Source of the DNA: Mycobacterium sp.
GTDB lineage: Bacteria; Actinomycetota; Actinomycetes; Mycobacteriales; Mycobacteriaceae
DNA: 64,000 nucleotides
NCBI GenBank assembly: GCA_040509115.1
Contig: JBEVLO010000095.1
Strand: one strand, 5' to 3'
Shown here: piece after piece, positions 6,337 through 37,601 of the stretch
How positions within the stretch are numbered: the stretch's first letter is position 1
How the letters are laid out: each line of letters opens with the position of its first letter
The notes under the pieces: model-generated
What the model saw: the letters and a program-made list of their open reading frames with translations, nothing else
The model's database searches: none
What the model was told of the DNA's origin: nothing
Program-made: the position numbers and the translations under genes

Positions 6337-6528
6337 TCAGGCGCCAGCAATGCGCTGGCGGACCGCTCCGGTCGCACGCCACGCCACCTCCGGCCGCGAG
6401 ATCAGCCCGGTGACGGCCGCCCGTGGGGCCCGCGTCGAGCGTAGGAAGACCCGGCGATGGCAAGGCAGGGGTGGGCATACGCTGATGCCGACGCAGATTC
6501 GACCGGTGCCCAGACGAGGAGCAGACGA

Positions 6529-8322
6529 ATGAAGTCCACCCTGTTGTCCCGACGCGACCTCGACTTCCTGCTGTACGAATGGCTCCGAGTGGAGGACCTG
6601 ACGAAGCGGGACCGGTTCGCCGAACACTCCCGCGAGACGTTCGACGGCGTTCTCGACCTCAGCGAGGAGTTGGCCGAGAAGTACTTCGCCCCGCACAACA
6701 AGAAGAGTGACGCCAACGAGCCCACCTTCGACGGCACCCGCGTCACCGTCATCGCCGAGGTCAAGGAGGCGATCGATGCGTTCGCGCAGGCCGACCTCAT
6801 CGGCGCCAGCATGGACGAGTCCCTCGGCGGCGCCCAGCTGCCAGCGTGCGTGGCGCAGGCCGGATTCGCGTACGTCTCGGCGGCCAACGTCAGCACGTCT
6901 GGCTATCTGATGCTCACGGTCGCCAATGCCAATCTCATCGCCAAGTTCGGCGACGACGAGCAGATCGAGGCATTCGTCAAGCCGATGCTCGCCGGGCGGT
7001 TCACCGGAACGATGGCGCTCTCGGAGACACAGGCCGGTTCGTCTCTCGCTGACATCCTCACCCGAGCCGAACCCCGCGATGACGGTACCTACCGCCTGTT
7101 CGGTTCGAAGATGTGGATCTCGGGCGCCGAACACGAACTCAGCGACAACATCGTGAACCTGGTGCTGGCCAAGATCCCCGGTGGGCCGCCGGGCACCAAG
7201 GGCATCTCGCTATTCATCGTGCCGAAGTACCTCAGCGGCCCAGATGGCGCCAATGGCCCCGTCGGCGAACGCAACGACGTCACCCTGGCGGGGCTGAATC
7301 ACAAGATGGGGCAACGGGGAATCACCAACACCGTGCTCAACTTCGGGGAGGGCGTCCACTCGCCGGGCGGTGAGGCGGGTGCCGTCGGCTATCTGGTCGG
7401 CGAGCCACACCGCGGTCTGACGTACATGTTCCACATGATGAACGAGGCCCGACTCGCGGTGGGGATGGGTGCGGTGTCACTCGGCTACACCGGGTACCTC
7501 AAGTCCGTCGCATATGCCCGCGAGCGGCCGCAGGGCAGGTTGGTCAAGGACCCGTCGACGCCGCAGGTGCCAATCGTCGAGCATACCGACGTCAAGCGGA
7601 TGCTGTTGGCGCAGAAGGCCTACGTCGAGGGCGGTCTGGCGCTGGCACTGTATTGCACCAGGCTCATCGACCTGCAGCGCTGCCCGGAATCCGCGGAAGA
7701 GGCCGAGTACGTCACCCATCTGCTCGACATCCTGGTGCCCGTCGCGAAGAGTTGGCCGTCGCAGTGGTGTCTCGAGGCCAACAGCCTGGCGATCCAGGTG
7801 CACGGCGGCTACGGATACACCCGAGAATACGACGTCGAGCAGCATTACCGGGACAACCGGCTGAACCCGATCCACGAAGGTACTCACGGCATCCAGAGCC
7901 TCGATCTGCTGGGCCGCAAGGTCACTCAACACGGCGGGGCCAGCCTCGTCGAGCTGGGCAAGGCCGTCGCCGCGACGGTCGAACAGGCCACCGCCGACGA
8001 GTCCGCAGCCCTTGCCGCTCAACTGGATTCGTCGTTCCAACGGCTCGTCGAGGTGACCGCCGCGATGTTCGCCACCGGTGACGTCGAGGCGGCCTTGGCC
8101 AACAGCGCCATCTACCTGGAAGCCTTCGGACACATCGTGATGGCCTGGATCTGGCTCGAGCAGTACCTGGTCGCCGAGGGCCAGTCGGGGGACTTCTACG
8201 ACGGCAAGCGGCAGGCGGCCCGCTATTTCTTCCGCTACGAATTGCCCAGGACTGCACCGCAACTCGACCTGCTGGCCGGTCTGGACCGGACGACGATGGA
8301 GATGCGTGACGCCTGGTTCTAG
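6529..8322 (+). CDS. Acyl-CoA dehydrogenase (about 600-aa long-chain type)
   Basis: 'GTMALSETQAGS', 'GSKMWISG', 'IQVHGGYGY...PIHEGT'; start at ATG 6529 after GAGGAG. Confidence 0.93.
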   Translation: MKSTLLSRRDLDFLLYEWLRVEDLTKRDRFAEHSRETFDGVLDLSEELAEKYFAPHNKKSDANEPTFDGTRVTVIAEVKEAIDAFAQADLIGASMDESLGGAQLPACVAQAGFAYVSAANVSTSGYLMLTVANANLIAKFGDDEQIEAFVKPMLAGRFTGTMALSETQAGSSLADILTRAEPRDDGTYRLFGSKMWISGAEHELSDNIVNLVLAKIPGGPPGTKGISLFIVPKYLSGPDGANGPVGERNDVTLAGLNHKMGQRGITNTVLNFGEGVHSPGGEAGAVGYLVGEPHRGLTYMFHMMNEARLAVGMGAVSLGYTGYLKSVAYARERPQGRLVKDPSTPQVPIVEHTDVKRMLLAQKAYVEGGLALALYCTRLIDLQRCPESAEEAEYVTHLLDILVPVAKSWPSQWCLEANSLAIQVHGGYGYTREYDVEQHYRDNRLNPIHEGTHGIQSLDLLGRKVTQHGGASLVELGKAVAATVEQATADESAALAAQLDSSFQRLVEVTAAMFATGDVEAALANSAIYLEAFGHIVMAWIWLEQYLVAEGQSGDFYDGKRQAARYFFRYELPRTAPQLDLLAGLDRTTMEMRDAWF

Positions 8323-8331
8323 CCCCTCCGC

Positions 8332-8380
8332 GATTTCGGCGCGCTCCCGTTCGCTCAGTGAACGTTTACGCGCCCAAATC
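8332..8380. repeat. REP-like bipartite hairpin / terminator between convergent genes
   Basis: Outer stem GATTTCGGCGCG/CGCGCCCAAATC (11/12) and inner stem CGTTC/GAACG. Confidence 0.6.
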
Positions 8381-8381
8381 A

Positions 8382-9482
8382 CTAGTCGAAGTCGATGATC
8401 TGCCGCACCGCGTGGCCGTCGGCGAGTTGATCCATCCCCTCGTTGATCTGATCCAGCCCGATCGTCGCCGACACCAGCGACTCCACCGGAAGTCGACCCG
8501 CCCGCCACATCGCCACGAAGCGGGGGATGTCCCTGGCTGGCACGGCCGATCCGAGATAGCTGCCGATGAGCGACCGCCCCTCGGCCACGAAACCCAAGGG
8601 CGACAATGTGATCCGCGCGTCGGGATGGGGGAGGCCGACCGTCACGGTGCGACCGCCTGGCGCGGTGAGCGCGATGGCCGTCTCCAGCGCCGCGGGATGC
8701 CCCGCCGCCTCGATGACGATCCGCGCCTTGAGGCCGCCGCTCTGCTCCGGTGTGACGGCGGCGTGCGCGCCGAGCTCGGTCGCCCGCGCGAGCTTGTCGG
8801 GCAGCTGGTCGACCGCGATCACCTCGACGTCGTCGTGCGCCAATGCCGTGAGAAGCGCCGCCATGCCAACGCCGCCCATGCCAACCACGGCGACGGTGTC
8901 ACCCGGCCGCGGTTGTCCCGCGTTGAGCACCGCACCTCCGCCGGTCAGCACCGCGCATCCCAGCAGCGATGCCACGACGGGCGGGACGTCGTCGTCCACC
9001 GCCACCACCGATCGACGGTCGACGACGGCGTGGGTGGCGAACGCCGAGACGCCGAGGTGGTGCAGGACCGGACCGCCGTCGGTGGACAGGCGCGTCCCAC
9101 CCGCCAGCAGGACTCCCTCGCCGTTCGCCGCGCTTCCCGGAATGCATGGGGCCAACCCATCGGTGGCGCAGGCCGAGCACTCGCCGCAGCGAGGCAGGAA
9201 CGTCATCACGATGCGCTGCCCGACGGCGACGTCGTCCACCCCGGCGCCGACCCGTTCGACGATGCCTGCCGCCTCGTGCCCCAGCAGCATCGGCACCGGC
9301 CTGACGCGAGAGCCGTTCACCACGGACAGATCCGAGTGGCACAGCCCGGCGGCTTCGATGCGGACCAGGAGCTCGCCGTCGCCGGGCGGCTCGAGCTCGA
9401 GGTCGACGATCGTCAGCGGCTTGGATTCGGCGTAGCGGGGCGGTGCCCCAATACGGTCGAGGACGGCTCCACGGATCTTCAC
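8382..9482 (-). CDS. Zinc-dependent alcohol dehydrogenase (Rv0162c/AdhE1-like)
   Basis: 'GLCHSD', 'LGHEAAG', 'CGECSAC..C' structural Zn site, 'GMGGVG'; start GTG 9482 (VKIRGAVL). Confidence 0.9.
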   Translation of the reverse strand: MKIRGAVLDRIGAPPRYAESKPLTIVDLELEPPGDGELLVRIEAAGLCHSDLSVVNGSRVRPVPMLLGHEAAGIVERVGAGVDDVAVGQRIVMTFLPRCGECSACATDGLAPCIPGSAANGEGVLLAGGTRLSTDGGPVLHHLGVSAFATHAVVDRRSVVAVDDDVPPVVASLLGCAVLTGGGAVLNAGQPRPGDTVAVVGMGGVGMAALLTALAHDDVEVIAVDQLPDKLARATELGAHAAVTPEQSGGLKARIVIEAAGHPAALETAIALTAPGGRTVTVGLPHPDARITLSPLGFVAEGRSLIGSYLGSAVPARDIPRFVAMWRAGRLPVESLVSATIGLDQINEGMDQLADGHAVRQIIDFD

Positions 9483-9522
9483 ACGACCAGCTTGCCAGTG
9501 CCTGGCCTGGAAGACTTGCCCG

Positions 9523-9990
9523 ATGACCATCGACGAACGGAAGCTGACCTCCCTCGACTTCCCCGTGCACTGGCCGGTGCTCACGCGGTGGGCCGACAAC
9601 GACATGTTCGGCCACCTCAACAACGCCGTTTACTACGAGCTGTTCGACACGGCGATCAACGCCTGGATCAACACCACCACCGGCGTCGACCCCGTCACCG
9701 CGCCGTGGCTGGGCGTCGTCGCGGAGTCGGGCTGCCGGTTCTTCGCCGAGCTGCAGTTCCCCGATCCGCTGGTCGTCGGACTGGCCGTGACCCGGCTGGG
9801 GAACAGCAGTGTCACCTACCGACTGTCGATGTTCAACGGTGTCGAGCCGTCCCAGGATGACGGGTCTCCGGTCGCCGCGGTGGGGCATTGGGTGCACGTC
9901 TACGTCGACAGGACCACGCGGCGGCCGGTCCCGATCCCCGACGCCGTCCGCACACTGCTGACGACCGCGCGCGCCACCGAGCGTTACTGA
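9523..9990 (+). CDS. Acyl-CoA thioesterase, hotdog/4HBT fold (Rv0163-like)
   Basis: 'RWADNDMFGHLNNAVYY' 4HBT motif. Confidence 0.9.
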   Translation: MTIDERKLTSLDFPVHWPVLTRWADNDMFGHLNNAVYYELFDTAINAWINTTTGVDPVTAPWLGVVAESGCRFFAELQFPDPLVVGLAVTRLGNSSVTYRLSMFNGVEPSQDDGSPVAAVGHWVHVYVDRTTRRPVPIPDAVRTLLTTARATERY

Positions 9991-30181: not shown

Positions 30182-31500
30182 GGGCGCGGCGGCGCCACTC
30201 GGTAAATGGCGTCCGCGTAGTCGTCGGTGACGTACAGCGCGCCGTCGGGACCCGTCACCGCGGCGACCGGCCTGCCCCACCGAGAGCCGTCGTCGGCCTG
30301 GAAACCGCCGACCAGTGTCTGCTGATCTCCGAGACCACCGTTCTGCCACGGGAAGAACGACACCTCGGGGGCGCGCGGCGGCTGACGGTTCCACGAACCG
30401 TGCACACCGACCAGGGCACCGCTCGCATACGGCGCGGGCAGTGCTCCGTCGTCGAAACTCAAGCCAAGCGGGGCCGAGTGCGCACCCATGCTCTGCTCGA
30501 TGGCGGGGAGCGCCGCGCAGTCGAGCCGACTGCCGTCGGCGTTGGTCTGCACGTCGCGGATCAGCGGTAGATTGGCTGGTCCGCCGTCCGGATTGCAGTA
30601 GGGCCAACCCAATTCGCGACCCGGGGTCAACTTCGCGAGGGACTCCGGGGGGTTCTCGTCGACGTAATCGGGAACCACCTGGCCGTAGCTTGGCCCCTCG
30701 TCGGCGACCGCGACGTTGTCGCGGTTGTTGACGGCGGTCCACACCGAGCCGTCGGGGGCGACCGCCAGGCCGGTGCCGTTGCGGACACCCGTGGCGAACG
30801 GCTGGTACGGTCCGCCGCCGGGCGGGATCCGCATGATGGTGGCGCGCTGCGGCGTGGCGTCGCGATCCTCGGCGGAGACGTTTCCGGTCGAACCGATCGA
30901 GAAGTACACGGCGCCATCGGGTCCCACGGCGACGCTCTTCAAGGCATGCGAGTAGGCGCCGCCGAGTTCGGGGCTCCTCGCGTCGGGTAATCCGGTCGCC
31001 ACGGTGCGCGGCCGGTTCACGACGCCGTTCTCGTAGTCGAACGCCACCACCTCGTCGCTCTCGGCGATGTAGAGGGTCGAACCGGCGAAGGCCAGGCCGT
31101 GCGGTTGGTTCATGCCGTTGAGGAGCAGGAGCATCTGCGGTCCCGCGCCGGTCGGCTGCAGTTTGATGACCTGCCCGGCGCTGGGGATCGACACTAGGAG
31201 ACTGCCGTCCGGGGTCCAGGCCGCTAGTCGTGGCTTGGGCACCCGCGCCCACACCGACATGGTCCAACCGTTGGGCACCAACGCCTTTCGGGGTACGTCG
31301 AACGGCGCGGCGTTGAGATCGTCGGGAACTTGCACGGTCACCTCGACCAGACCCGCCTCCGCGGGCGGCCGCGTCGTCGTCGTCGCTGCCTCGGTCGGTG
31401 CCTGCGGAGTACTCGACGAGCACCCCGCCAGCAGAAGGACGCCGATGGCGCCGACCGCACCCGTTGCCTTGAACGCCTTACGCCGCAGCCAAACCCGCAT
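30178..31500 (-). CDS. Glucose/sorbosone dehydrogenase-family beta-propeller lipoprotein
   Basis: Lipobox 'LLAGC'; 'GVRNGTGLA', 'AHSAPLGLSF', 'GRPV..GPDGALYVTDD'. Confidence 0.8.
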   Translation of the reverse strand: MRVWLRRKAFKATGAVGAIGVLLLAGCSSSTPQAPTEAATTTTRPPAEAGLVEVTVQVPDDLNAAPFDVPRKALVPNGWTMSVWARVPKPRLAAWTPDGSLLVSIPSAGQVIKLQPTGAGPQMLLLLNGMNQPHGLAFAGSTLYIAESDEVVAFDYENGVVNRPRTVATGLPDARSPELGGAYSHALKSVAVGPDGAVYFSIGSTGNVSAEDRDATPQRATIMRIPPGGGPYQPFATGVRNGTGLAVAPDGSVWTAVNNRDNVAVADEGPSYGQVVPDYVDENPPESLAKLTPGRELGWPYCNPDGGPANLPLIRDVQTNADGSRLDCAALPAIEQSMGAHSAPLGLSFDDGALPAPYASGALVGVHGSWNRQPPRAPEVSFFPWQNGGLGDQQTLVGGFQADDGSRWGRPVAAVTGPDGALYVTDDYADAIYRVAPPRP

Positions 31501-32242
31501 GCATCTCCCAGATCAGGATTTCCGATGATTCCGTCGCGGTGACCCGTTGGCCACCGGATGCGGTGAAGCGCACCGCGTCACCTTCGTGGAGCGGGCCAGC
31601 GCCCTCCAGCACCACCTCGCCGCGGGGGACGAACAGGTGCAGATAGGGGGCCTGCGGCAGTTCGACGCTGTCGCCGGGCTGCAACCGCGCTCCACGCAGG
31701 GCTGCGTACTTGTTGCTGATGGTGATGGCGGCGTCACCCGAGTGTTCGGGCATGCCCGTGGCGATGGTCACCAGCTTGCCGCGCAACAGTTCGTCGTCGA
31801 TCTCGAGCTGCTGGTAGCCGGGGGTGATGCCCGACTCGTCGGGTACGACCCACATCTGCACGAAGTGCACGGGGTCGGCGTGTGAGCTCTCGCCCGTCAA
31901 CGTCCAGGAGTCGTTCTTCTCCGAGTGCATGATGCCGCGCCCCGCCGACATTCGCTGTGCCAGGCCGGGATAGATGACGCCCGAATGGCCGGTGGAGTCC
32001 TGGTGAACCAACGAGCCGCGCAGCACCCAGGTGACGATCTCCATGTCACGGTGGGGATGGGTGTCGAATCCCTTGCCCGGCTTGACCACGTCGTCGTTGT
32101 TGACGAGCAGCAGTCCGTGATGGGTGTTGGTGGGGTCGTAGTTACCACCGAACGAGAACGAGTGCTTCGAGTCGAGCCAGGAGATCTTGGTGCTGGCCCG
32201 GTCCTGCGCGCGTCGGATCTCGACGATGTCAGTGGTGGTCAT
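31478..32242 (-). CDS. Pirin family protein (Rv0181c-like)
   Basis: 'GFDTHPHRDMEIVTWV', 'QRMSAGRGIMHSE', 'QMW'. Confidence 0.92.
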   Translation of the reverse strand: MTTTDIVEIRRAQDRASTKISWLDSKHSFSFGGNYDPTNTHHGLLLVNNDDVVKPGKGFDTHPHRDMEIVTWVLRGSLVHQDSTGHSGVIYPGLAQRMSAGRGIMHSEKNDSWTLTGESSHADPVHFVQMWVVPDESGITPGYQQLEIDDELLRGKLVTIATGMPEHSGDAAITISNKYAALRGARLQPGDSVELPQAPYLHLFVPRGEVVLEGAGPLHEGDAVRFTASGGQRVTATESSEILIWEMHAGLAAA

Positions 32243-32304
32243 GGAAGAGCTCCTCGGGGATCATTTGCCAGCCTAGGTGGCTGTCACTGGACACGACAAC
32301 TTAA

Positions 32305-32316
32305 ATGATGTGTCAT
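32305..32316. promoter_or_regulatory. Candidate MarR operator (ATGA-tgtg-TCAT)
   Basis: Inverted repeat in the AT-rich pirin/marR divergent spacer. Confidence 0.4.
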
Positions 32317-32323
32317 ATATTCC

Positions 32324-32770
32324 ATGTGGCTGAGCGACGATCAACAGCGAGTGTGGCGCAACTACCTGGCGATGAGCGCCGGGCTGCAGATCGAGATGAA
32401 CCGCCAACTGCAGCGCGACTGCGGGCTCTCGCTGGCCGACTACGACGTGCTCGTCGCGCTGGCGGAGCTCGCGGTCTGCCGGGTCAACGAGCTCGGCGAC
32501 CGGTTGGGGTGGGAGCAGAGCAGGCTGTCGCACCAGCTGCGACGGATGCGTTCCCGCGGGCTCGTCGAACGTCGCGGCGCGGACGACGACCGCAGGGGGG
32601 CCACGGTCGAGCTGACCGACGCGGGACGGTCCGCGCTGGAGTCGTCGGCGCAGGGTCACGTCGAGCTGGTGCGCACCGTCGTGTTCGACGGGGTGAGTGC
32701 AGCCCAACTGCGCGCGTTGGACGGTTGGACGTCGCAGGTCCTGGCACGGCTCGGGGAGGGCTCTGCTTAA
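32324..32770 (+). CDS. MarR-family regulator
   Basis: 'LSLADYDVL', 'WEQSRLSHQLRRM', 'DRRG..VELT'. Confidence 0.9.
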   Translation: MWLSDDQQRVWRNYLAMSAGLQIEMNRQLQRDCGLSLADYDVLVALAELAVCRVNELGDRLGWEQSRLSHQLRRMRSRGLVERRGADDDRRGATVELTDAGRSALESSAQGHVELVRTVVFDGVSAAQLRALDGWTSQVLARLGEGSA

Positions 32771-32779
32771 TCTGTCAGC

Positions 32780-33556
32780 GTGGACATCAACGGAGCTAGC
32801 GCAATCGTCACCGGAGGTGCGTCGGGTATCGGCGCCGCATCTGCCCGCAAGTTGGCCGAAAGGGGAGCCAAGGTCGTCATCGCGGATCTGCAGGCAGAAC
32901 GCGGCGAGGCCCTCGCCAAGGAACTCGGGGGTGCCTTCGTCAGCGTGGACGTCACCGACACCGCGCAGATCGAGGTCGCCGTCAACGCGGCCACCGAACT
33001 CGGCCCGCTGCGGGCACTGGTCAACTCGGCAGGCATCGGGTGGGCCCAGCGCACGATCGGCAAGGACGGCGAATTCGCGTCGGCACACAACCTCGACGCC
33101 TACAAGAAAGTGCTCGCCATCAACCTGGTGGGCACCTTCGACTGCATCCGCTTGGCTGCCACGGCGATGAGCCGCAACGAGCTCACCGACACCGGCGAGC
33201 GAGGCGCGATCGTCAACATGACCAGCGTCGCGGCCTTCGACGGCCAGATCGGCCAGGCCGCCTACTCGTCGTCAAAGGGTGGCGTCGTCGGTCTGACCCT
33301 GCCGGTGGCCCGCGACCTGTCCGCGTCCGCCATCCGCGTCAACACCGTGGCGCCGGGACTCATCGACACCCCGATCTACGGCGAGGGCGAGGCGTCGGAG
33401 GCATTCAAGAAGAAGCTCGGTGAATCGGTGCTCTTCCCGCATCGCCTTGGGCAGCCCGAGGAGTTGGCGTCGATGGTCATCGAGCTGATCACCAACTCGT
33501 ACATGAACGCCGAAGTCGTCCGTGTGGACGGCGGTATCCGGATGCCGCCGAAGTAG
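32780..33556 (+). CDS. SDR oxidoreductase (3-hydroxyacyl-CoA DH type II/HSD17B10-like)
   Basis: 'TGGASGIG', 'VNSAGIG', 'YSSSKGG', '[11 protein letters not shown]'. Confidence 0.92.
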
Positions 33557-33562
33557 CCTCGT

Positions 33563-33619
33563 CGAGTGGCCAGTTAGCGCACGCCTTTTCGCGAATTGCG
33601 TGGGATAAGTGGCCACTCG
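33563..33619. repeat. 57-bp palindromic REP-like element, left copy
   Basis: Terminal inverted repeat CGAGTGGCCA/TGGCCACTCG extending as an imperfect stem of about 22 bp. Confidence 0.8.
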
Positions 33620-33671
33620 CGCCTGTGGATAACTTGAGCACGACACGGCGGATTCGTCGCATCGTGGGCTG

Positions 33672-34553
33672 GTGACCTCCGACTGGCCCTTCCTGGGAAG
33701 TGAAGCACTGGCTCGCGGCGCCGTGAGCAGGAGGGCGCTTGGTCATGGGTATGTCCGCGTCTACCGCGACGTCTACGTGCCACGGGGTGTAGTGCTGACG
33801 GCTGCCGATCGTGCGGTCGCGGCGTGGCTGTGGTCGGGGCGGGATTCGACGATGGCGGGTCTGTCGGCCGCGGCGTTGCAGGGCGCAAAGTGGATCGACC
33901 CCGCGAGGCCCGCCGAGCTGTTCCGTCGCAACGGAAAAGCGGCCGCCGGCATTCTGATCCATCGTGACGAGCTATCCGCCGACGAGCATCGGTACATCGG
34001 CAGGATCGCCGTGTCGACGCCAGCCAGGACGGCGTTCGACCTGGGGCGGCGGCCGGGACGCACCGCAGCCGTGGTCCGGATCGACGCGCTGGCCAACGCG
34101 ACGGGTCTGCGCATGTCGACAGTTGCTGAGCTGATCGGGCGGCATCCCGGTGTCCGGGGCTTGGCGCAGCTGCGCGAGGTGATCGGGCTCGTCGACGGGG
34201 GCGCGGAATCGCCGCAGGAGACCAGAACGCGTTTGGTGCTCGTCGATGCGGGACTACCGCGGCCAGAGACCCAGATCGTGGTCGACGATTGGCGCATCGA
34301 CATGGGGTGGCGGGAGTTCAAGGTCGGTGTCGAGTATGACGGCGTACAGCATTGGACCGACCCCCGCCAGCATCAGCGCGACATCGACCGCCTTGCGGAG
34401 CTGCTGGCCAGGGGGTGGCTGATCGTGCGAGTTAGCGCCGACATGCTGCGCGCCCGCCGCGACGTGATCATGCTCAGGACCTGCCAGGCACTTCGCCAAG
34501 CCGGTGCCGAATGGCCAGTTGTCACACGTCTTTTGGCCAATTGCGTGGCGTAA
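33672..34553 (+). CDS. AbiEi-like/DUF559 (Vsr-like PD-(D/E)XK) domain protein
   Basis: 'TPARTAFDLGR', 'GAESPQETRTRL', 'RIDMGW..KVGVEYDG.QH', 'GWLIVRV'. Confidence 0.8.
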   Translation: MTSDWPFLGSEALARGAVSRRALGHGYVRVYRDVYVPRGVVLTAADRAVAAWLWSGRDSTMAGLSAAALQGAKWIDPARPAELFRRNGKAAAGILIHRDELSADEHRYIGRIAVSTPARTAFDLGRRPGRTAAVVRIDALANATGLRMSTVAELIGRHPGVRGLAQLREVIGLVDGGAESPQETRTRLVLVDAGLPRPETQIVVDDWRIDMGWREFKVGVEYDGVQHWTDPRQHQRDIDRLAELLARGWLIVRVSADMLRARRDVIMLRTCQALRQAGAEWPVVTRLLANCVA

Positions 34554-34564
34554 GTGGCCACTCA
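34508..34564. repeat. 57-bp palindromic REP-like element, right copy (direct repeat of 33563-33619)
   Basis: CGAATGGCCAGTTGTCACACGTCTTTTGGCCAATTGCGTGGCGTAAGTGGCCACTCA aligns without gaps to the left copy and encodes the ORF's last 14 codons and stop. Confidence 0.8.
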
Positions 34565-34569
34565 CCCGC

Positions 34570-35565
34570 CTACAACGAGGTGGGCAGCCCGAACTTCTCG
34601 AACAGGCCGTTGCCGACCGCGTGGAACGCGACCACGTGGGAGACCCCGCCGCGGCGCACCTCCAGCACGTGCAGCTGGAACTCCTCGTGCGCGCCCGTCT
34701 GGCGGTTGAGCATGTACAGCGCGGCGGCGGGCTGACCGTTGGCGGTGGTCTGCACGAATCGCATGTCGCCTGCGCCCTCGGCGGGGCAGTGCGTCTTGGA
34801 CAGCGTGACGATGTCCTCCGGACCCTGATACCAGCCGTCGAACGGTGGCATCTCGAAGACCGCGTCGGCAGTGAAGAGCTCGACCAGCTTGTCGATGTCG
34901 TAGGTCTCGAAGGCTGCGATGTACTTCGCCAGAAGATCCCGCGCTTCGGGCGACTCCGGCGCGGCGACGTCGTCGTCCTGGCTGGGGTGCACCGCGTCGA
35001 GTTGTGCGCGGGCCCGCTGTAGCAGGCTGTTGACCGCGGCGGTGGACAGACCCACGGCGTCCCCGACCTCGGCAGCCTTCCACTGCAGCACTTCGCGCAA
35101 CACCAGCACCGCCCGCTGGCGCGGCGACAGATGCTGTAGCGCGGCGACGAACGCCAACCGGACCGCGTCACGGGATTCGACGATCACCGACGGGTCCGAC
35201 GGGTGCTCGCGAGGGGAGTCCGGTAGCGGCTCCAGCCAGGTGATCTCGTCGTTCTGGGCGATGTCGCCCGTGGGATCGGAGCTCGGCGCCCCGAGGCCGG
35301 TGGGCAGCGGCCTGCGCTGGCGCCCGTCGAGGGCGGTGAGGCAGGTGTTGGTGGCGATCCGGTACAACCACGTCCGGATCGACGACCGGCCCTGGAACCC
35401 CTCGTAGGACTTCCAGGCGCGCAGGTACGTCTCCTGGACCAGGTCCTCCGCATCGTGAAGCGACCCCGTCATGCGATAGCAGTGCGCCATGAGTTCCCGC
35501 CGGTAACGCTGCGCATCGGCGAGGAAGGCGTCTTTCGAGTCGAAGCTCTCGGCAAGCACGCTCAC
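34570..35565 (-). CDS. sigG: ECF sigma factor SigG (sigma-70 plus SnoaL-like C-terminus)
   Basis: 'ELMAHCYRMTGSLHDAEDLVQET', 'RTWLYRIATN', 'SLLQRAR'; GTG 35565 preceded by a TAGGCT -10 box; divergent from the Rv0183 ortholog. Confidence 0.9.
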   Translation of the reverse strand: MSVLAESFDSKDAFLADAQRYRRELMAHCYRMTGSLHDAEDLVQETYLRAWKSYEGFQGRSSIRTWLYRIATNTCLTALDGRQRRPLPTGLGAPSSDPTGDIAQNDEITWLEPLPDSPREHPSDPSVIVESRDAVRLAFVAALQHLSPRQRAVLVLREVLQWKAAEVGDAVGLSTAAVNSLLQRARAQLDAVHPSQDDDVAAPESPEARDLLAKYIAAFETYDIDKLVELFTADAVFEMPPFDGWYQGPEDIVTLSKTHCPAEGAGDMRFVQTTANGQPAAALYMLNRQTGAHEEFQLHVLEVRRGGVSHVVAFHAVGNGLFEKFGLPTSL

Positions 35566-35637
35566 CTCGATGAGCCTACCCAGAGGGTCCGACAGGTGGT
35601 AGCGCCATCGCCAAGCGCGTTCAGCATGGCCCGCTAG

Positions 35638-37601
<1,964 letters not shown>

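Follow-up and report, generated by a model that had tools for sequence, protein, structure and literature searches.

A predicted Vsr/DUF559-fold nuclease gene between two directly repeated palindromes in Mycobacterium sp.: a candidate cassette of a protein and its putative cognate sites

The window analyzed here is a stretch of 64,000 nucleotides from contig JBEVLO010000095.1 of a Mycobacterium sp. genome (GenBank assembly GCA_040509115.1), in which a gene for a predicted nuclease stands between two 57-nt palindromes repeated in direct orientation (Table 1). This unit of one gene and two palindromes is real, family-specific, ancient and under selection, and it follows a cassette plan (palindrome, promoter region, gene, palindrome) that is old and spread across the Mycobacteriales. 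The layout suggests an undescribed partnership between a nuclease and a repeat; full-text searches for DUF559 together with Mycobacterium or with palindromic repeats found no publication describing it. In our reading, the gene between the two palindromes encodes a protein for which they are most likely the cognate DNA sites, and we give this reading as a whole a probability of about one half.

Two direct copies of a palindrome flank the nuclease gene

A repeat search of the window aligns positions 33563-33618 with 34508-34563 over 56 nt, without gaps and at 84% identity. This agrees with a preliminary description of the same DNA, in which two 57-bp hairpins aligning without gaps had been reported. 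Both copies are inverted repeats in themselves, and their end pattern GAGTGGCCA..TGGCCACTC had no chance match in 100 shuffles of the window. The left copy folds at -35.1 kcal/mol (z = -3.1), and the right copy is a weaker hairpin (-25.3 kcal/mol, z = -0.9). The asymmetric loops of the two copies align in the direct sense (CTTTTnGnnAAT); therefore, the copies are truly direct repeats, and their resemblance is not mere palindromic symmetry.

The unit fits tightly between a short-chain dehydrogenase (SDR) gene and a convergent sigma-factor gene, the arrangement already seen in the preliminary description. The left copy starts 6 nt behind the SDR stop and lies about 50-110 nt 5' of the start of the nuclease gene, and the end of the right copy is 5 nt from the stop of the sigma-factor gene. 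It had also been noticed that the right copy provides the end of the nuclease open reading frame (ORF). Indeed, the last 14 codons and the stop TAA (34551-34553) lie inside 34508-34564, and the translation ends ...EWPVVTRLLANCVA* within the palindrome. The register of the right copy, from -45 to +15 around the stop, is unchanged in orthologous loci. Rfam gave no RNA family and no intron at E <= 1 within 33300-34800, and neither a classical promoter nor a U-tract terminator was found within 33400-34750. The palindromes of the window may double as 3'-end hairpins for both convergent neighbor genes.

The layout is a trait of the gene family

The whole genome from which the window comes (Mycolicibacterium-type, 7.7 Mb in 568 contigs; G000 below) was searched for relatives of the gene. 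It holds seven further paralogs at 43-57% identity by tblastn (42-60% by MAFFT), plus one distant paralog at 26%. A flank test, in which 300 nt upstream were aligned against the gene 3' end plus 200 nt downstream, detected direct repeats of 55-65 nt at C95 (the window), C213, C354, C101, C373 and C275, and weakly at C75. In addition, a palindrome scan found one-sided palindromes at C507 and at C442, the latter at a contig end. Six to seven of the nine family copies in this genome are thus placed between direct repeats of their own palindromes, and the flanking repeat of every paralog is a palindrome of a different sequence. A check proposed earlier, for cognate hairpins at other DUF559 paralogs, had a positive outcome, with a few gene-less (solo) copies in most of the palindrome families.

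As controls, 1500 random ORFs of 200-400 aa from the same genome were used, of which eight reached a flank score of at least 42. Four of these belong to this very gene family, and the other four are tandem paralogous genes whose coding sequences align and which have no palindrome. No unrelated control gene has palindromic flanks, which excludes chance and marks the layout as a trait of the gene family.

The same layout was found in 38 of 80 loci (flank score at least 36) sampled from genomes of Mycolicibacterium, Mycobacterium, Mycolicibacter and Mycobacteroides. Relative to the start, these loci have the left copy at about -100 to -40 (or -150 to -85), and around the stop they have the right copy at -45 to +15. 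Within the genus, 59 of 60 genomes carry 1-14 copies of the family. Across the order, 52 of the 101 sampled genomes and 28 of the 47 genera have family members, and in 19 of the 24 loci of other genera (30-41% protein identity) the gene stands between direct repeats of a palindrome of its own, 55-110 nt long. In the mycobacterial loci too, every protein lineage comes with a palindrome that differs from the others.

The encoded protein

The window protein matches Pfam DUF559 (PF04480) at residues 200-268 with 23.4 bits, against a cut-off of 20.6, and MTES_1575 (PF18741) with 32.5 bits, under its cut-off of 38.2; the DUF559 and REase_MTES_1575 matches together span residues 193-272. NCBIfam has no family for the protein, and its sole match by sequence in the PDB was 3r3p, at a marginal phmmer E of 0.65. 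A confident AlphaFold (AF2) model was built from 79 homologs (pLDDT 92.4, pTM 0.87). The C-terminal domain of this model matches 3r3p, the catalytic domain of I-Bth0305I (Foldseek E 9.6e-4, TM (target) 0.72-0.78), as well as 3hrl (the DUF559 protein NGO0050) and Vsr (1vsr, 1cw0). The fold of the model supports the Vsr-like nuclease C-terminus that had been proposed, and the window protein can be described as a predicted Vsr/DUF559-fold nuclease, closest in predicted fold to the homing endonuclease I-Bth0305I. Among the 79 sequences, D210 and Q226 are invariant, and E221, D223, H227 and D237 are conserved to at least 90%.

The N-terminal two thirds of the model show a weak fold match to Rv2827c, an antitoxin-repressor of AbiEi type from M. 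tuberculosis (1zel; TM 0.37, prob 0.96). Pfam AbiEi gave no match to the window protein at E <= 0.01, and many of its close relatives are annotated with PF09407 (AbiEi_1). The AbiEi-like label given to the protein earlier can thus be kept, weakly, on the Rv2827c match and on the relatives, but not on an AbiEi match of its own. With a dN/dS of 0.10-0.25 against its orthologs, the nuclease gene is intact and under purifying selection. The family has more than 5000 relatives, with PF18741, PF04480 and PF09407 among them, which are named just "DUF559 domain-containing", "endonuclease domain-containing" or "very-short-patch-repair endonuclease".

Selection on the arms and geometry of the sites

Between the window and 10 orthologous loci, dS is saturated (0.9-2.9) and four-fold sites are 31-53% identical. 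In the same comparison, the non-coding left arms are 80-91% identical, compared with 27-73% for the loops, which shows purifying selection on the arms. In each arm an outer box CGAGTGGCCAGTTA is separated from an inner box GCACGC by three free positions. The arms are kept as sequence, with little compensatory change (covariation) within the family, and a hairpin maintained by compensatory changes was rejected on this ground. Conservation in two boxes with few compensatory changes fits recognition by a protein better than a purely thermodynamic hairpin.

The sites of Rv2827c and AbiEi, in the promoters of their own genes, are paired 23-bp inverted repeats, with a 13-bp gap between the repeats in the case of Rv2827c (PMC7319586). 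The 22-nt arms and 13-nt gap of the palindrome are close to this geometry (23 bp plus 13 bp), which supports the reading of the palindromes as cognate sites. Meanwhile, I-Bth0305I is a multidomain homodimer with a footprint of about 60 bp around a pseudopalindrome (PMC3239194), and the overall length of the palindrome is similar to that of this footprint.

The two copies of one locus are more alike than position-wise descent predicts. Left/right identity is 0.76 within a locus, compared with 0.69-0.74 between loci, and reaches 96-97% in two loci, including L076, which is a lineage-specific insertion; in 11 of 29 loci the own right copy is among the top 3 of 57 for the left copy.

Solo copies and palindrome families

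The preliminary description had left room for the 57-mer to be unique, which it is not: the window's palindrome family has five to six stand-alone, gene-less copies on other contigs, none of which adjoins a paralog. Gene-less copies were found for six of the seven palindrome families of this genome. The C354, C101, C373, C275 and C75 families have 2-10 solo copies each, and the C213 family has none. Generally, the solo copies are intergenic and lie a few bases from stop codons. The genome contains 92 long palindromes that group into eight multi-copy families, five of which include a copy flanking a gene of the nuclease family; orphan palindrome families with no resident gene are also present.

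The window's palindrome family occurs in 16 of the 60 genus genomes. The mean number of solo sites is about 2.6 in those genomes that encode a protein at least 61% identical and about 0.27 in the others. Copy number varies from genome to genome; in the case of the C101-type palindrome, G003 has 12 matches.

Gain and loss of palindrome-bounded units

The orthologs at the locus are 65-77% identical in protein, and at least four species have the cassette next to this sigma-factor gene. On the left side, different insertions (MarR, SDR, cassette) lie between the pirin and sigma genes depending on the species (Table 1), and the SDR gene is not at this position in G024, G015 and G020. The cassette is kept beside the sigma gene while its left neighbors vary right up to the left palindrome; therefore, it is ancient and vertically inherited, and it is probably a sedentary member of the family. 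Vertical conservation at this locus had been named beforehand as a result that would speak against a selfish unit. The constant sigma-gene neighbor bears this out in part. In G020 the site is empty, and neither gene nor palindrome is present at the same position. Relatives with empty sites, which had been suggested as something to look for, do therefore exist.

Other sites show units that have arrived. The L076 cassette, whose palindromes are 97% alike, stands at a site that in four relatives is a spacer of 30-51 nt between the flanking genes, free of any palindrome. In a fifth relative a solo palindrome belonging to a different family lies there, at a distance of 5-6 nt from the same stop codon, and G089 has no family member in the portion of the gap that was retrieved. 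A solo copy at C459:39787-39843 (L006 1498-1558) follows a conserved 630-aa gene, behind which five relatives (L128-L132) have a plain GC-stem/T-run terminator. After whiA in G015:C14 (L176 1281-4114), two palindromes of the window's family enclose an 879-aa cyclase/NB-ARC gene of lower GC content. Downstream of whiA, the genome of the window shows a solo copy that is degenerate and of another family, and nothing is present there in 29 other genomes. In G018 (L044 4345-4997) the window's palindrome family also brackets a 163-aa gene of the 3-demethylubiquinone-9 methyltransferase family. The C459, L076 and whiA sites indicate that palindrome-bounded units do enter intergenic sites, with a cargo that is rarely other than the nuclease gene. 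The same family brackets other cargo twice, as if the palindromes were perhaps duplicated on insertion.

A transposable element of the insertion sequence (IS) or miniature inverted-repeat (MITE) type was considered and rejected, since the unit has no transposase domain and is bounded by entire palindromes in direct orientation. At the diverged empty sites, short target duplications could not be defined.

Promoter-side motifs

A DnaA-box-like T[TG][AG]TCCACA motif is found 55-95 nt 5' of the start in 28 of the 80 loci (within L049-L124). It lies just 3' of the left palindrome or in its loop, accompanies none of the 80 3' palindromes, and has only two matches in 406 kb of control sequence. The window has the motif in the former of these two places (Table 1). 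Perfect TTATCCACA is not enriched genome-wide (13 found vs 11.8 expected), and only its position upstream of family members is special.

Another motif, TGTCGGTG-N8-nAnnnT, is located 22-31 nt 5' of the start in 8 of the 80 loci and in three paralogs, compared with 5 occurrences per 820 kb of control sequence. A motif published for PafBC/RecA-NDp promoters is TGTCGG-N10-TA-N3-T (PMC8151990). The family motif is near to it, but usually has G or C in place of the first T of the -10 element, and the window's own gene fits the PafBC-like motif poorly. On this likeness, part of the family may be DNA-damage-inducible. The spacing of 22-31 nt would suit leaderless transcripts.

Relation to known systems

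Among known systems, the REP/REPIN-RAYT elements (REPtrons) of Proteobacteria, where REP stands for repetitive extragenic palindromic and RAYT for REP-associated tyrosine transposase, resemble the present unit in that a single gene is flanked by palindromic repeats, gene-less copies are scattered between genes, and every gene lineage has its own repeat family. However, RAYT is an HUH/Y1 transposase, whereas the protein here has a predicted PD-(D/E)XK nuclease domain of the Vsr/DUF559 fold joined to an AbiEi-like half. No HUH/Y1 (IS200/IS605-like) transposase was found, and the Pfam and fold searches of the protein gave DUF559/MTES_1575/Vsr and AbiEi-like matches only. Furthermore, the flanks are inverted in REP/RAYT and direct here, solo copies number hundreds there and 2-10 per family here, and the host here is actinobacterial. 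The parallel to REP/RAYT drawn in the preliminary description thus applies to the logic of a gene living with its own dispersed repeats, but not to the protein family, as the enzyme is not a RAYT-type transposase.

The clearest REP/RAYT-like picture that we have seen is given by a distant subfamily in G065. Its protein (295 aa) is 29% identical to the window protein over residues 89-264, and its genes (Table 1) are bracketed by 56-nt palindromes GAGCAGACGC...GCGTCTGCTC. G065 has two genes of this subfamily, each with its own palindrome sub-variant, and the solo copies of the two number at least 12 and at least 24. Copies with exact termini amount to 63 in G065, 26 in G079, 9 in G055, 1 in G005, 0 in G050 and 1 in the window's genome, and reversed-pattern controls of GAGCAGACGC...GCGTCTGCTC gave none. 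As a best guess, the GAGCAGACGC...GCGTCTGCTC family might be TRIT (tuberculosis Rho-independent terminator).

TRIT is the nearest published element. M. tuberculosis has 147 copies of this strongly conserved, palindromic element, which is about 50 nt long (Gardner et al. 2011, PMC3152330); it occurs around position -8 of stop codons in mycobacteria only, and an unknown binding factor was suspected by its authors (PMC3152330). Later, TRIT was proposed to be a substrate of RNase III and not a terminator, with little overlap with mapped termination sites (PMC13714241). By description, TRIT elements share with the palindromes studied here the size of about 50 nt, the conservation, the bidirectionality and the place at the 3' ends of genes, on or near stops, as well as the occurrence in mycobacteria, Mycolicibacterium included. 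In contrast, no partner gene has been described for TRIT, which the literature treats as a motif for RNA termination or processing. The palindrome family of the window is low in copy number and differs from the GAGCAGACGC...GCGTCTGCTC one.

I-Bth0305I and the EDxHD homing endonucleases (PMC3239194) share with the window protein a Vsr-like catalytic domain within a multidomain protein; however, I-Bth0305I is encoded in a phage group I intron and homes into the intron-less allele, whereas the present gene is free-standing and intergenic, between two presumed sites. AbiEi and Rv2827c (type IV AbiE; PMC7319586) have a similar N-terminal fold, by a weak match, and an inverted-repeat site upstream of their own gene. 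Unlike these systems, the unit has no AbiEii toxin gene, its C-terminal nuclease replaces the antitoxicity domain, and the site recurs at the 3' end and, as solo copies, elsewhere. The same single-gene unit without AbiEii is found in relatives.

Proposed mechanism and alternative explanations

Taken together, the geometry of the sites, the fold of the protein and the lineage-specific pairing of genes with palindromes make it likely that the protein recognizes its own palindromes. A further role in spreading or maintaining them is possible, but we would not presume it. In the mechanism that we propose, two subunits would bind the two 22-nt arms, as AbiEi and Rv2827c do on their pairs of 23-bp inverted repeats, and binding at the left copy would lead to autoregulation. 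The nuclease domain might nick or cut at the palindromes, in the manner of dimeric I-Bth0305I on its footprint of about 60 bp. Repair from other copies would keep the arms alike. Occasionally it might also duplicate the palindrome on both sides of an insertion, which would in most cases be the nuclease gene and seldom some other cargo. A more general version, which we put forward as a doubtful conjecture, is that nucleases with an AbiEi winged helix-turn-helix and a Vsr fold are the missing partners of mycobacterial palindromic repeats, possibly including TRIT, within the Actinobacteria. Each lineage would cut its own palindrome of about 56 nt, and host repair would maintain and multiply the palindromes and duplicate them around inserted DNA. 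The result would be a nuclease-driven, transposase-free mobile cassette able to capture other genes.

Several results weigh against this reading of the unit. Conservation of the arms would also be expected from a purely operator or RNA-processing role. There is no sign of recent copying, as paralogs are at most 60% identical in amino acids in this genome and at most 62% in a 16-copy genome, and recent transposition was rejected for the genomes examined. That 16-copy genome has clear repeat pairs at only 5 of its 16 copies. The empty sites found hold no palindrome, so that homing into a preexisting site fails to explain entry and was set aside as unsupported. The phage collection gave no match, and plasmids are nearly without the family, with four weak matches on large non-mobilizable replicons. 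A cut-and-paste process with a cut at the center would be expected to leave inner and outer arms pairing better across the two copies than within one, and the comparison gave no signal in either direction (0.758 vs 0.758, Wilcoxon p = 0.85). To our knowledge, a PD-(D/E)XK nuclease cannot rejoin DNA alone. Genomes with an ortholog have a tenfold excess of solo copies, but they are also kin, which confounds the comparison. Each family has few solo copies (2-10), and these are no closer to the resident cassette than to orthologs of other species. The suggestion in the preliminary description that the element spreads or maintains its own palindromes is left as a possibility, as G061, G076 and G017 hold 2-4 solo copies without a protein at least 61% identical and the palindromes occasionally bracket unrelated genes.

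The unit might instead be a host gene of an ordinary, autoregulated kind, such as a nuclease for repair or defense that is inducible by damage, with the left palindrome as an AbiEi-type operator, the right one as a second operator or a 3'-end hairpin, and the solo copies as operators or RNA 3'-end elements; nothing would move, and regulation alone would keep the layout. Such a gene is expected to stay at one locus over several species, to be under purifying selection together with its arms and to lack recent copies, all of which is seen here. The operator-like geometry equal to that of the Rv2827c sites, the PafBC/RecA-NDp-like promoter motif in some loci and paralogs, and the position of the palindromes at gene ends, as in TRIT, for which RNA processing is proposed, point in the same direction. 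However, an operator does not explain why a second full copy covers the stop codon in a register fixed across an order. Nor does a host gene account for 1-16 diverged copies per genome, each with private palindromes, for whole units that are present in some lineages and absent from others at sites that are otherwise syntenic, for solo copies in place of terminators, or for the same palindromes around unrelated, lower-GC cargo. We therefore regard this explanation as rather unlikely.

Alternatively, the palindromes could be independent small intergenic repeats of a REP-, MITE- or TRIT-like kind, perhaps terminators or RNase III substrates, which piled up in gene-poor spots where the nuclease gene merely lands or survives beside them, with no recognition. 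This would agree with solo copies in genomes lacking a close ortholog, with the orphan families that have no resident gene, with palindromes bracketing other genes too, and with the description of TRIT-like elements without a partner gene. Yet the pairing is lineage-specific in the 19 outgroup loci and the six to seven paralogs mentioned above, the same family is always on both flanks, no unrelated gene among the 1500 controls is so flanked, and both the promoter-side motif and the register of the right copy are fixed relative to the gene; independent repeats are thus improbable. The remaining explanation, a toxin-antitoxin-like or abortive-infection module fused in one chain, would make the AbiEi-like half the repressor or neutralizer, the nuclease the toxin, and the palindromes operators. 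The resemblance of the N-terminal half to AbiEi/Rv2827c, the inverted-repeat operator geometry, and the multi-copy, patchy occurrence of the family fit this idea. We nevertheless consider it slightly more improbable still, as no AbiEii (DUF1814) gene is nearby, the neighbors being SDR and sigma-factor genes, the locus is stable over several species, and the 3' copy and the solo copies are left unexplained.

If the palindromes are recognized by the protein, as we prefer to read them, a function would be given to more than 5000 uncharacterized "DUF559 / very-short-patch-repair endonuclease" genes, which occur in 1-16 copies in almost every mycobacterial genome searched. In addition, mycobacterial gene-end palindromes would acquire a partner, of the kind already suspected for TRIT as a binding factor. 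The family would be a second case, independent of REP/RAYT, of a gene living with its own repeat family, here built on a nuclease unable to rejoin DNA, and it would offer a natural set of nuclease/site pairs that differ from one another and have very long sites (about 57 bp). If the explanation by an ordinary host gene holds, the result would still be a useful annotation of operator and 3'-end elements for a large, possibly DNA-damage-inducible gene family.

Features of the window and of compared loci

Table 1. Positions of the features discussed, numbered from the first letter of the window, followed by the layouts and motif carriers in other loci.
Feature	Position	Strand	Description
Left palindrome	33563..33619		57 nt; arms 33563-33584 and 33598-33619 (22 nt, 86% complementary), 13-nt loop
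DnaA-box-like motif	33624..33632	-	TGTGGATAA, reverse complement of TTATCCACA; directly 3' of the left palindrome
Nuclease gene	33672..34553	+	293 aa; AbiEi-like N-terminal half, predicted C-terminal Vsr/DUF559-type PD-(D/E)XK domain
Right palindrome	34508..34564		Direct orientation relative to the left copy; overlaps the nuclease gene 3' end
SDR gene	32780..33556	+	Upstream neighbor, outside the unit
Sigma-factor gene	34570..35598	-	Extracytoplasmic function (ECF) type with SnoaL-like C-terminal domain, SigG-like; convergent downstream neighbor
Solo palindrome, C275 family	8330..8382		53 nt, GCGATTTCGGCGCGC...GCGCGCCCAAATCAC; between two convergent stops
Locus in G024			Pirin, MarR, palindrome-gene-palindrome, sigma
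Locus in G015			Pirin, palindrome-gene-palindrome, sigma
Locus in G018			SDR, further genes, palindromes, 3-demethylubiquinone methyltransferase-family gene, palindrome, nuclease gene, palindrome, sigma
Locus in G020			Pirin, MarR, sigma; 42-nt MarR-sigma spacer with neither gene nor palindrome
Distant-subfamily loci with GAGCAGACGC...GCGTCTGCTC	G065:C1:2408976-2410039 (L247)		L247, L246, L244, L245, L248, L223
Carriers of TGTCGGTG-N8-nAnnnT			C507, C101, C75 (G000); L059, L072, L082, L098, L107, L109, L114, L120

The solo palindrome of the C275 family at 8330-8382 begins 8 nt past the stop of the ORF at 6457-8322 and abuts the stop of the convergent ORF at 8382-9623. Around the cassette, the order of a pirin-like gene, a sigma factor with SnoaL and an alpha/beta hydrolase (31478-36519) is reminiscent of Rv0181c-sigG-Rv0183 in M. 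tuberculosis.

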